DNA of 64,000 bases, from NCBI GenBank assembly GCA_040507245.1, contig JBEVVH010000002.1, positions 10,297-74,296 of the forward strand, in the 5' to 3' direction. The number at the start of each line of letters is the position of its first letter. Position 1 is the stretch's first letter. A model generated the notes under the pieces. The model ran no database searches and had not been told where the DNA came from. It worked only from the letters and a program-made list of their open reading frames with translations. The position numbers were made by a program, and so were the translations under genes. The DNA comes from Candidatus Thiodiazotropha sp. (GTDB taxonomy: Bacteria > Pseudomonadota > Gammaproteobacteria > Chromatiales > Chromatiaceae). This document shows, piece after piece, positions 28,415-36,724 of this stretch.

Positions 28415-28502
28415 CTAATTTCGAACTGTGAATTTTGAATTATGAGTTCTGGTCTTTGTGATGACAGGTCGATTCATCCACAACCCATAATTCAAGACTC
28501 AT
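28415..28502. repeat. Heptamer-armed intergenic element, copy 1
   Basis: ctaattt-cgaactg-tgaattt-tgaatta-tgagttc, then inverted units taattca-agactca. Confidence 0.7.
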
Positions 28503-28511
28503 CCGGACAGC

Positions 28512-28543
28512 GCCGCGAAACGGGCATATGCCCGTTTCGCGGC
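28512..28543. terminator. Perfect 32-bp palindrome after the gap stop (terminator or mRNA-stabilising hairpin)
   Basis: gccgcgaaacgggcat followed by atgcccgtttcgcggc. Confidence 0.6.
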
Positions 28544-28550
28544 TGACTGA

Positions 28551-29552
28551 TTACTTGGCGACGTGTTCCACCATGCGCAGCATGTTGCAGGTGTAGCCGT
28601 ACTCGTTGTCGTACCAGGAGACCACCTTGACGAAGGTGTCATCCAGGGCGATACCCGCACCGGCGTCGAAGATGGACGGGGTGGAGCGACCGCGGAAATC
28701 GGTGGAAACCACCTTGTCCTCGGTGTAGGCCAGCACGCCGGACAGATCGCCGGACTCGGAAGCGGCCTTCATGGCGGCGCAGATGTCGTCATAGCTGGCG
28801 CCTTTGTTCAGTTCCACGGTCAGGTCGACCACAGAGACGTCGGAGGTGGGCACACGGAAGGCCATACCGGTCAGCTTGCCGTTCAGTTCAGGCAACACCT
28901 TGCCTACAGCCTTGGCGGCACCGGTGGAGGACGGGATGATGTTCTCCAGGATACCGCGGCCACCGCGCCAATCCTTCTGGGAAGGACCGTCGACGGTCTT
29001 CTGGGTAGCAGTCGCAGCATGCACGGTGGACATCAGACCACGCTTGATGCCCCAGTTGTCATTCAGCACTTTGGCCACAGGAGCCAGACAGTTGGTGGTA
29101 CAGGAAGCGGCGGAGACGATGGTCTGACCGGCGTAGTCATTGTGATTGACGCCGTAGACGAACATCGGGGTGGCGTCCTTGGAGGGCGCACTCTGCACGA
29201 CTTTCTTGGCGCCGGCATCGATGTGCTTCTGACAGGTCTCTTCGGTGAGGAAGAAGCCGGTGCACTCGATGACCAGTTCAGCACCAATCTCGTCCCACTT
29301 CAGGTTGGCCGGATCGCGCTCGGCGGTAAGACGGATCTTCTTGCCGTTGACCACCATGTTGCTGCCTTCCACGGAGATGCTGCCCGGGAAGTTACCGTGT
29401 ACGGAATCATATTGCAGCATGTAGGCCAGGTAGTCGGGTTCCAGCAGATCGTTGATGCCGACGACTTCGATGTTGGGGAAGTCTTTCGCGATGGCACGGA
29501 ACGCCATACGGCCGATGCGGCCAAAACCATTGATACCTACTTTGATAGTCAT
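28551..29552 (-). CDS. gapA: Glyceraldehyde-3-phosphate dehydrogenase (type I)
   Basis: [22 protein letters not shown] and SWYDNEYGY motifs. Confidence 0.98.
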
Positions 29553-29596
29553 ATCGATTCTCCGTTAAACGTATATAGAGTTGTATTCGTCATGGG

Positions 29597-29619
29597 GCGG
29601 GGTGCAATCAGCACCCCGC
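29597..29619. terminator. GC-rich hairpin between tkt and gap
   Basis: gcggggtgc-aatca-gcaccccgc; no clear U-tract. Confidence 0.4.
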
Positions 29620-29627
29620 GGGTAGTC

Positions 29628-33927: not shown

Positions 33928-34044
33928 TTTTGAATGTTGAATCATGAATTTTGAATCGGGGTTGCCCGCTCCGCGGGCGCTTCAGTTCGAATAAATCGTG
34001 CGCAAAGCGCACTCGACAATTCAAAATTCATAATTAAAAATTAC
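33924..34044. repeat. Heptamer-armed intergenic element, copy 2
   Basis: ttaattt-tgaatgt-tgaatca-tgaattt-tgaatcg ... caattca-aaattca-taattaa-aaattac, enclosing two GC hairpins (33964-33978, 33998-34012). Confidence 0.8.
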
Positions 34045-34054
34045 TCTAAAAAAG

Positions 34055-34127
34055 TTTGCCGAGGAGCGCTGCAACGGAAACCATCCGCCAGGCTCGGCAG
34101 ACCCACCGATCGACCAAACGGCGCTCA
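34055..34127 (+). promoter_or_regulatory. SAH riboswitch
   Basis: TTTGCCGAG/CTCGGCAGA P1 stem, GAGGAGCGCTGCAAC..GCCAGGCTC core, pseudoknot partner AACGGCGCTCA; directly upstream of ahcY. Confidence 0.92.
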
Positions 34128-34153
34128 CTCACGATATTCAGGAGCTGACTACC

Positions 34154-35560
34154 ATGAGTGAGTTTACCGACTACAAAGTAGCTGACATCGCCCTGGCGGA
34201 CTTCGGTCGCCGGGAGATCGCCATCGCCGAAACCGAGATGCCCGGCCTGATGGCGATCCGCGACAAGTACGCCCCGGAGCAGCCGCTCAAGGGCGCCCGC
34301 ATCACCGGTTCCCTGCACATGACCATTCAGACCGCGGTTTTGATCGAAACCCTGGTCGCCCTGGGTGCCCAGGTTCGCTGGTGCTCCTGCAACATCTTTT
34401 CCACCCAGGACCATGCCGCTGCGGCGATCGCCGCTCAGGGCATCCCTGTGTATGCGTGGAAGGGAGAATCCCTGGAGGAGTACTGGTGGTGCACCGAGCA
34501 GGTCCTGAACTGGCCCGACGGCGGCCAGCCCAACATGATTCTCGACGATGGCGGTGATGCCACCCTGCTGGTTCACAAAGGCGTTGAATATGCCGACGCC
34601 GGCGCCGTCCCGGAGCCAAAGGCCAACGACCCGGAAGAGTGGCAGGTCATCCTTGGCGTATTGCGCCGCAGCCTGGAAGAGGATCCACAGCGCTATCACC
34701 GTATCGCGGAATCGATCAAAGGTGTTACCGAGGAGACCACCACCGGGGTGCACCGGCTCTACCAGATGATGGAACAGGGCACCCTGCTGTTCCCCGCGAT
34801 GAACGTCAACGACTCGGTCACCAAATCGAAATTCGACAACCTCTACGGTTGCCGGGAATCTCTGGTGGACGGTATCAAACGCGCGACTGACGTGATGATC
34901 GCCGGCAAGATCGCCATCGTGGCCGGTTACGGTGATGTGGGTAAGGGATGCGCCCAGTCACTGCGGGGTCTCGGCGCCACCGTGATGATCACCGAAATCG
35001 ACCCGATCTGCGCCCTGCAGGCCGCGATGGAGGGCTACCGGGTCGTCACCATGGAGGAGTCCGCGCCACTTGGCGACATCTTCGTCACCACCACCGGCAA
35101 CCTGAAGATCATCACCCATGATCACATGGCGGCGATGAAGGATCAGGCCATCGTCTGCAACATCGGCCACTTCGACAACGAGATCGACATTGCCGGTATC
35201 CGCCAGTATCCCTGGGAGGAGATCAAGCCCCAGGTTCATCACGTGATCTTCCCGGACGGCAAACGCATCATCCTGCTGGCGGAGGGACGCCTGGTGAACC
35301 TTGGCTGTGCCACCGGCCATCCCAGCTTTGTCATGTCCAACTCGTTTTCCAACCAGGTGCTGGCCCAGATCGAGTTCTTCACCAACTCCGAGGCCTATGA
35401 AAATCGGGTCTACGTGTTGCCGAAGAAACTCGACGAAGAGGTGGCCCGACTCCATCTTGCGAAGATCGGCGCACATCTGACCACGCTGAGCCCGGAACAG
35501 GCTGAGTACATCGGTGTGCCGGTGGATGGCCCTTACAAGCCGGACCATTACCGTTACTGA
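34154..35560 (+). CDS. ahcY: Adenosylhomocysteinase
   Basis: [40 protein letters not shown] and [14 protein letters not shown] motifs. Confidence 0.98.
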
Positions 35561-35632
35561 GTCAGACGTCCCCGGCCTGCTCTGCCCGGCCGGGGCGGTT
35601 TACCCACCATCTGCCCCCAGCGATTTCCCCTC

Positions 35633-36496
35633 ATGAACACATCGGACACAACAGAGCAGCTTTTCAGCTTCGAACTGTTTCCACCCAAGACCGCCCAGGG
35701 TTTCGACAAACTCAAAGCGAATGTGGAAAAACTCAATACCCTCAAACCCGCCTTCTTCTCCGTCACCTACGGGGCGGGCGGCTCGACTCAGCAACGCACC
35801 TTTGAGACGGTGGACTGGTTGTCGGATCAGCGGATCGATACCGCCCCGCATCTCTCCTGTATCGGAGCCGATCGGGAAGAGATCCTGCAGATCCTGGAGC
35901 GCTACCGGGACATGGGACTGCATCGGCTGGTGGCTCTGCGCGGTGATCTGCCGTCAGGCATCGGCTTGGGGGACCTGGGTGAACTCAACCACGCCAACCA
36001 GTTGGTGAGCCTGATCCGGGAGCACTTTGGCGAGCATTTTCATATCGAGGTGGCGGCCTACCCGGAGTTTCATCCCCAATCGAGCAGTCCGAAACAGGAC
36101 CTCAAACATTTCAAGAACAAGGTCGAAGCCGGCGCCAATAGCGCCATCACCCAGTACTTCTACAATGCGGACGCCTATTTCCGCTTTCTTGACGATTGCC
36201 AGCGCCTGCAGATCGACATCCCCATCGTACCGGGTGTCATGCCGATTACCAATTCACTCCAGCTGGGACGTTTCTCCGATGCCTGTGGCGCGGAAATTCC
36301 CAGTTGGATTCGTAAGCGGCTGGAAGGCTATGGTGAAGACCTGGAGTCGATCCGCAGTTTCGGCACCGAGGTCGTCACCGCGTTGTGCGAGCGACTCTTG
36401 TCAGGCGGCGCACCCGGACTGCATTTCTACACCATGAATCAGGCGGAACCCACGACCAGGATCTGGCAGGCGCTGAATGCGAATTTTAAGTTTTGA
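35633..36496 (+). CDS. metF: 5,10-methylenetetrahydrofolate reductase
   Basis: SFELFPPK, SVTYGAGGS, ALRGD, VAAYPEFHP and GLHFYTMN motifs. Confidence 0.97.
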   Translation: MNTSDTTEQLFSFELFPPKTAQGFDKLKANVEKLNTLKPAFFSVTYGAGGSTQQRTFETVDWLSDQRIDTAPHLSCIGADREEILQILERYRDMGLHRLVALRGDLPSGIGLGDLGELNHANQLVSLIREHFGEHFHIEVAAYPEFHPQSSSPKQDLKHFKNKVEAGANSAITQYFYNADAYFRFLDDCQRLQIDIPIVPGVMPITNSLQLGRFSDACGAEIPSWIRKRLEGYGEDLESIRSFGTEVVTALCERLLSGGAPGLHFYTMNQAEPTTRIWQALNANFKF

Positions 36497-36724
36497 GTTA
36501 TGAATTTTTAGTTGATGAGTTCGCTGCGCTCACGGTTATCGCGTTCCCACGCTCTGCGTGGGAATGCAGACCCGGGCTTGCGCATGCCTAACAGGTTTGG
36601 GCGATACGTCGTAATATCCATAGGCATTCCCACGCAGAGCGTGGGAACGAGATACAAAATAACCGTGAGCGCAGCGAACACATCAACTTAAAACTCAAAA
36701 CTTACAACTCAAAACTAACAAAAT
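36480..36724. repeat. Heptamer-armed element, copy 3: about 245-bp nested palindrome between convergent metF and kinase genes
   Basis: Heptamer arms, a perfect 21-bp inverted repeat (36519-36539 / 36659-36679), and an inner REP doublet. Confidence 0.85.
36542..36649. repeat. REP doublet (REPIN/BIME-like)
   Basis: Perfect 26-bp inverted pair CGTTCCCACGCTCTGCGTGGGAATGC (36542-36567) / GCATTCCCACGCAGAGCGTGGGAACG (36624-36649); each copy is itself a hairpin. Confidence 0.85.

Follow-up and report, generated by a model that had tools for sequence, protein, structure and literature searches.

The 64-kb window analysed here (C2:10297-74296 of the source genome G000, a 3.80-Mb assembly of Candidatus Thiodiazotropha sp. 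in 355 contigs with 57.7% G+C) holds three palindromes with AT-rich arms, located between gap and pgk (site 1), between metK and ahcY (site 2) and at the end of metF (site 3). [quoted passage not shown] The family is previously undescribed and combines the REP/MITE kind with unusual terminal repeats of five heptamers and an unusually strong retention; no description of intergenic repeats of Ca. Thiodiazotropha and relatives was found in the searchable literature. The sulfur-oxidising bacteria of this group (Ca. Thiodiazotropha and relatives) live in symbiosis with lucinid clams and with the roots of seagrass and cordgrass. Judged by AhcY, the nearest relatives with a name are a Candidatus Thiodiazotropha metagenome-assembled genome (MAG; 92%) and a Sedimenticolaceae MAG (91%), the latter carrying a canonical heptamer element at the same site.

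The initial annotation, made from the letters of the window, had described three palindromes with tandem heptamer arms around a GC-rich core, and this design is recovered at all three sites. The arms consist of three to five heptamers of the form NARTTNT, with units of the GAATTTT or GAGTTTT type in the left arms and the same units inverted in the right arms. It is also correct that there are none elsewhere in the window, as Tandem Repeats Finder called period 7 only at these three sites across the 64 kb and an inverted-repeat tool gave the same result. A motif scan of G000 revealed 106 arms, and in 60 of these the length was exactly five units (35 nt). A genome-wide search of the kind that the initial annotation had proposed gave 85 arms of at least four units, compared to a single one in five shuffles (about 0.2 each). 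The shuffling was done in 50-nt blocks and preserves local AT-richness; reversed sequence is unsuitable as a control for arm counts since a reversed heptamer is a cyclic permutation of itself. Paired elements, defined as a plus arm followed by a minus arm within 700 nt, numbered 35 in G000, and nhmmer found 69 loci in this genome. The complete G011 has about 40.

A canonical copy (for example C57:10011-10132) measures about 122 nt and is made up of a 35-nt arm, a 19-nt GC-rich inverted repeat, an AT-rich loop of some 14 nt and then the first half in mirror image. Each terminal inverted repeat thus spans about 54 nt, namely five NARTTNT heptamers and a 19-nt GC-rich segment such as GGTGTTCGCTKCGCTCACG, and the inner inverted repeat reads GGTGTTCGCTKCGCTCACG ... 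CGTGAGCGMAGCGAACACC. The innermost unit of the arm is usually GAGTTGT or GAGTTGA, and this distinctive unit argues that the arm is a 35-nt sequence with internal periodicity and not a free-running microsatellite. The inner repeat almost always accompanies an arm: of its 78 half-sites, 49 are no more than 12 nt away from a recognised one, most others lie beside degenerate arms, and a few are chance-like matches in coding sequence. A small non-coding unit with terminal inverted repeats and many dispersed copies is what characterises a MITE, and all of these properties are found here. Rfam gave no significant match on the elements, the sole hit being a chance-level plant microRNA at 30.9 bits against a gathering score of 100.

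The family is confined to the genus. An order-wide sample contained it in 22 of the 25 genomes of the genus and in not one of the 126 that represent 53 other genera, and a sequence model of the element matched 20 of 24 same-genus genomes and none in 16 other families. Orthologous gap-pgk, metK-ahcY and metF regions were compared, as the initial annotation had advised, and presence/absence polymorphism was seen at the latter two. Site 1 is filled in every genus genome tested, including the element-poor G003, G012 and G020. Site 2 is filled in 23 of 30 genus genomes, and the seven with an empty site (a 19-98-nt spacer) are those without or nearly without the family. Site 3 is filled in 5 of 12 genomes, all of one subclade (G000, G044, G017, G014 and G007), and is empty in the element-bearing G004 and G011, with spacers of 63 nt and 14 nt, respectively. 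Four sites in a Nuo/Hyf-like operon are likewise empty in G003 and G012. Insertions took place at several times in the history of the genus, the oldest before its radiation, since the copies at the three sites range from genus-wide to restricted to one subclade.

Copies are located directly behind stop codons and mostly between genes of one operon. Based on crude gene calls that rely on G+C content at third codon positions (GC3), the intergenic settings were tandem in 36 cases, convergent in 9 and divergent in 1, when about 13 divergent settings are expected from intergenic length. The upstream stop codon is usually a few nt from the arm or within it, and the next start codon follows about 15-25 nt past the far arm. 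Four copies on contig C57 lie between the genes of an operon for a Nuo/Hyf-like membrane complex. According to our reading of the protein sequences, the genes flanking copies across the genome include gap, metK, metF, glyA, fabI, leuB, nifK-like, sufBD, rnfCE, hypD, pckA and sensor kinase genes. The association with highly expressed carbon and one-carbon operons, which the three sites of the window had suggested, is consequently not specific, as other copies stand behind nif, suf, rnf, hyp, fabI, leuB, sensor-kinase and numerous further genes. The inward strand of the arms is rich in stops, with 4.5 per arm, and all three frames are closed in 54% of the arms versus 19% of shuffled ones, so that the proposition that every arm closes all three frames is only half true. 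This property would explain why copies hug stop codons, because an element could enter a gene at or within its final codons and do almost no harm.

A role for the element is indicated by its retention at orthologous sites. Mean pairwise identity at site 1 among 12 genus genomes was 0.81 for the left arm and 0.73 for the right arm, compared to 0.41 for the core and 0.57-0.65 for third codon positions. At site 2, compared among 23 genomes, the two arms reached 0.80 and 0.81, the core 0.59 and third codon positions 0.53-0.56, and the S-adenosylhomocysteine (SAH) riboswitch beside it had a mean identity of 0.785 among 23 genus genomes. One operon copy was 92-98% identical where third codon positions were 75-82% identical. 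The conservation is site-specific and extends to position 1 of the heptamer, which is variable among copies. Arms that are better conserved than synonymous sites argue for some function, and their maintenance above the synonymous level points to a putative host-level role in the operons. Conservation coexists with structural change at the same sites, including 7-nt slippage indels that stay in phase even between genomes 98-99% identical, an exchange of core halves (a flipped core) between G000 and G014/G007, replacement of a whole element so that G017 has A-type arms where G000, G014 and G007 have G-type arms, and additional nested insertions.

The predicted RNA of an element is one long hairpin in which a median of 24 of 35 arm positions are paired between the two arms; the z-score has a median of -7.3. 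Read from either strand, the order is a U-rich arm, a GC hairpin and an A-rich arm. This geometry rules out an intrinsic or bidirectional terminator, and because the order is the reverse of that in an intrinsic terminator, transcription would be expected to read through. The element would be transcribed together with its operon. REP elements protect mRNA from 3' exonucleases. Correia-containing mRNAs are cut by RNase III, and ERIC at 3' ends changes mRNA decay (PMC10969869). By analogy, the hairpin would most likely serve as an intercistronic or 3' mRNA structure, either as a barrier to 3' exonucleases or as a substrate of RNase III.

Several results weigh against a REP/MITE-like element acting through its hairpin. 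Complementarity between the two arms of the same element at variable heptamer positions was 0.525, versus 0.534 between arms of different elements (p = 0.61). Compensatory pairing at these positions was thus not found, and the lack of extra complementarity within elements suggests that selection seems to act on the motif and not on perfect pairing. No target-site duplication was detected: the sequences flanking 35 copies have no direct repeat in common, and where filled sites were compared with empty ones the divergence was too great to reveal one. No transposase was present in any loop cargo, long copies carrying other repeats or a PF05635 gene, and no autonomous partner stood out among the match positions in the complete G011, inspected by eye and not exhaustively. 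The copies are old: pairwise identity among them has a median of 66%, the closest pairs, at 82-88%, are formed by three copies of a single operon, and a recent burst has not occurred. The mobile-element option of the initial annotation hence holds as to kind, given the dispersed copies, the restriction to the genus, the filled and empty sites and the nested repeats, but a target-site duplication and a transposase partner were not found.

The main rival explanation regards the arms as an array in which each 7-nt unit is bound by a subunit of a single-strand-binding or multimeric protein, with the hairpin being secondary; we consider this possible, if on the unlikely side. A cold-shock-domain or S1-type protein spans about 7 nt. 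The sharp mode at five units, the conservation of the motif without added complementarity at variable positions and a conservation of the arms as strong as that of the SAH riboswitch all speak for such an array, and S1, Csp and CsrA were proposed by MacGregor as binders of TAACTGA arrays (PMC4679880). Another candidate reader is encoded in one of the copies. At C57:6893-7424, within the Nuo/Hyf-like operon, an arm pair encloses a 130-aa gene (C57:7001-7393, minus strand) of PF05635, the 23S rRNA intervening sequence protein, which is an Avd-like four-helix bundle. Among loci from relatives the gene lies within an arm pair in 11 of 12. These represent a single orthologous locus, with three tandem copies 375 nt apart in G015, and the single-copy gene is missing from G009, G011, G016 and G024, which are good genomes with well-formed elements, and it was therefore rejected as an obligatory partner. 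HutP, a known NAG-N4 binder, does not provide the reader either, as PF09021 was found in none of the 31 genus genomes while the Bacillus subtilis control was positive, and no candidate protein co-varies with the family. One may speculate further that the arms are more than transposon ends and are a cis-acting code for a dedicated multimeric protein, the five units serving a pentameric Avd/S23p-like bundle or a row of cold-shock-type domains, and would form operon punctuation in chemosynthetic symbionts that controls how stable adjacent cistrons are or how they are translated and is related in principle to the TAACTGA arrays, but this extension is quite improbable.

A reading of the family as nothing but selfish or neutral DNA, an ancient MITE-like element now in decay and without a role for the host, is favoured by the coexistence of filled and empty sites, other repeats nested in the loops, the common decayed half-copies and flanking genes without a common function. 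We find it unlikely since identity of about 0.8 in the arms, against about 0.55 at third codon positions and 0.4-0.6 in the cores, is difficult to reconcile with neutrality, as is the site-by-site agreement of orthologous arms even at the variable position 1. Moreover, the gap-pgk copy persists in genomes without the rest of the family, where there would be few donors for gene conversion. Punctuation of transcription at the DNA level, by outward promoters in A-rich arms or by bidirectional terminators, is very unlikely. Of the five promoter-like hits in 11 kb scanned, three do fall within arms at sites 1 and 2, two of these three (one at each site) point to the downstream gene, and promoter-like hexamers are conserved there (the -35-like TCGACA at site 2 and, at site 1, a TAGAAT/TTCAAA pair). 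A general role as outward promoters is nevertheless rejected, as 9 of 12 promoter matches are attained by no more than 7 of the 85 arms and 10 by none; most copies are inside operons and the terminator geometry is inverted as described above, so that a promoter role is at most a local, secondary use at sites 1 and 2. The least probable alternative is a REPIN, a REP-hairpin doublet mobilised by a REP-associated Y1 transposase (RAYT). The inner module is indeed built of two inverted small hairpins around a short spacer, and true REP-type doublets are nested in loops, but the inner repeat almost always lies beside a recognisable or degenerate arm and is not an independent unit. A link to RAYT was rejected as PF01797 has no match in the element-rich G000 and G007 and does have matches in the element-free G003, G012, G018 and G020; the co-occurring transposase that the initial annotation had suggested looking for was accordingly not found, neither as PF01797 in G000 and G007 nor as cargo.

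The coordinates of the three copies in the window are given in the table.

Table. Features of the three heptamer elements and the adjacent riboswitch (positions in the 64-kb window).
Feature	Position	Strand	Description
Site 1 left arm	28416-28450		Five degenerate heptamers, TAATTTC GAACTGT GAATTTT GAATTAT GAGTTCT
Site 1 core	28451-28479		Variable, with a short hairpin
Site 1 right arm	28480-28500		Three inverted heptamers
Site 2 left arm	33925-33956		A-type heptamers; starts at the metK stop codon TAA
Site 2 core	33957-34015		Two small hairpins flanking an AT-rich loop
Site 2 first core hairpin	33964-33978		GCCCGC-TCC-GCGGGC
Site 2 second core hairpin	33998-34012		GTGCGC-AAA-GCGCAC
Site 2 right arm	34016-34043		Ends 11 nt ahead of the SAH riboswitch
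SAH riboswitch (RF01057)	34055-34133	+	63.3 bits, E = 4.5e-10; between site 2 and ahcY
Site 3 left arm	36481-36515		Five heptamers; encodes the metF end (NFKF + TGA)
Site 3 inner GC-rich inverted repeat, left half	36516-36540		TGAGTTCGCTGCGCTCACGGTTAT
Site 3 nested insertion	36541-36654		REP_A doublet GTTCCCACGC...GCGTGGGAA, copies 56 nt apart; 31-nt arms, 97% complementary
Site 3 inner inverted repeat, right half	36659-36682
Site 3 right arm	36683-36717		Five heptamers, inverted; the convergent hybrid sensor kinase gene has its stop 7 nt away

According to Pfam, the genes around the three sites are pgk, gap, tkt, metK, ahcY, metF and a convergent gene for a hybrid sensor kinase. Site 1, whose left arm lies 21 nt from the start codon of pgk, is a degenerate copy; its arms are 83% complementary over 24 nt. 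The RNA fold z-scores are about -1.5 to -1.9 at site 1, about -5 to -6 at site 2 and -16 at site 3, where the arms are contained in a 56-nt inverted repeat (88%). The initial annotation held that arms supply the stop codon of metK and the last codons of metF. The metF part was borne out, as the arm provides the last four codons and the stop, and MetF ends QALNA-NFKF-stop with the element and QAL-xx-stop in the empty-site relatives G004 and G011. The metK part did not stand, since genomes without the element have TAA at the same position; the stop is metK's own and the arm begins right there.

A separate palindrome, perfect over 16+16 nt, lies directly after gap at 28512-28543 of the window and has no U-tract behind it. 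Its hairpin is retained across the genus with differing sequence (e.g. GCCGCGAAACGGGC vs CACGGGGCGGC), which suggests putative compensatory change. The match of G014:C23 to the gap-pgk region breaks just past this gap hairpin, where G014 has about 150 nt extra that represent an insertion or a replaced spacer. At site 3, G007:C1:1855995-1856401 consists of about 400 nt inserted within the element, directly after the left inner repeat.

Other repeats reside in the loops of the longer elements. The REP_A family (GTTCCCACGC-N3-5-GCGTGGGAA) has 103 copies in G000, often as inverted doublets of about 116 nt, and many copies of about 116 nt at 81-91% identity are found in the relatives G044 and G017; judged from these identities, REP_A looks younger and more active than the heptamer family. 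A third family, CCCCTCTCCC...GGGAGAGGGG, has 73 copies in G000 (on contigs C16, C52, C77, C99, C113, C316 and others). Twenty-one of the 73 (29%) are inside heptamer-element loops, roughly 19 times as many as expected by chance. The elements cover only 0.17% of the genome. One loop holds an inserted gene, the PF05635 gene described above. The loop of the heptamer element thus appears to be a preferred landing site for other repeats. Genes for IS200-like Y1 transposases are present in 0 to 27 copies per genus genome (noted in G024, G015 and G004), and the 27 copies of G024 are nearly identical and 145 aa long.

Among known repeats, the REP/BIME sequences and REPINs of Enterobacteria and Pseudomonas share several properties with the heptamer family. 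They are short imperfect GC-rich palindromes in inverted pairs with tens to hundreds of copies, they lie behind the 3' ends of genes and between operon genes and are co-transcribed, as the heptamer family would be, no target-site duplications accompany them and they receive insertions of other elements. The heptamer family differs in always having 35-nt AT-rich arms, in the absence of a RAYT gene and in its lower number of copies (40-70 per genome). Like Correia elements of Neisseria (CREE/NEMIS) and ERIC/IRU (enterobacterial repetitive intergenic consensus/intergenic repeat units) of Enterobacteria, its members are palindromes as a whole, of about 100-150 nt, without a known transposase and restricted to a genus or family. 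Co-transcription as long hairpins, presumed for the heptamer elements, is another shared trait, and in those families the hairpins are cut by RNase III (Correia) or influence decay by RNase E (ERIC), as described in PMC10969869. The sequences are unrelated. Correia has terminal repeats of 26 bp together with a TA duplication and an IHF site, and neither Correia nor ERIC has terminal repeats of tandem heptamers.

A comparison to the short tandemly repeated repetitive (STRR) sequences of cyanobacteria and the TAACTGA repeats of marine Beggiatoaceae had been drawn in the initial annotation. It is no more than a resemblance; both of those are direct, unpaired arrays of one defined heptamer, which the elements described here are not. 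The STRR of heterocystous cyanobacteria are reportedly tandem intergenic heptamers (CCCCAGT and others) with nested small palindromic repeats, variable array length and no fixed pairing of five units against five; from this account, tandem intergenic heptamers and nested palindromic repeats are shared with the heptamer family whereas units and pairing differ. The TAACTGA repeats are arrays of two to six AT-rich, stop-containing heptamers in intergenic regions of sulfur-oxidising Gammaproteobacteria (PMC4679880), located near the next start codon and at times overlapping the end of the upstream gene, as are the arms of the heptamer family. The units, AACTGAT there and AACTCAA/AACTCAT here, match at 5-6 of 7 positions. 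The TAACTGA arrays comprise 169 direct sets and one inverted, with no predicted structure (MacGregor 2015, PMC4679880), whereas every full copy here is an inverted pair around a GC-rich core that is predicted to fold to a hairpin and has the unit NARTTNT (AACTCAA on the other strand). Six tandem TAGTTAT heptamers were also observed at the end of a contig near ahcY in L026:3-44 (JAUJGA010000116.1), an unrelated gammaproteobacterial MAG with 38% G+C.

The copy at C57:6893-7424 has the layout of intervening sequences of 23S rRNA, a stem of complementary ends enclosing a PF05635 gene, but it lies in an mRNA operon. The intervening sequence in Coxiella 23S rRNA has heptameric repeats at the RNase III site (PMC4990558). 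The elements as such are not rRNA intervening sequences, as in six genus genomes the 23S genes have a normal length of 2886-2893 nt and fit the model from end to end. Integron attC sites (5'-RYYYAAC...GTTRRRY-3') are imperfect palindromes that lie behind the open reading frames (ORFs) of mobile gene cassettes and go together with an integrase; here, the flanking genes are core housekeeping genes and by inspection the GTT-type ends are on the 5' side.

The family has practical implications in that the repeats break assemblies and mislead gene callers, with ORFs extending into the arms, and could act as markers for strain typing. For sulfur bacteria it adds a second case, different in structure, of stop-rich AT heptamer arrays located where genes meet, and it may help to explain the TAACTGA arrays. 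Furthermore, it is a clean example of a small palindromic repeat in which the arms have been held tighter than synonymous sites throughout the lifetime of the genus, and a host-level role is thereby indicated in operons for glycolytic enzymes related to carbon fixation, the methyl cycle, nitrogenase, Rnf, Suf and hydrogenase-like complexes.

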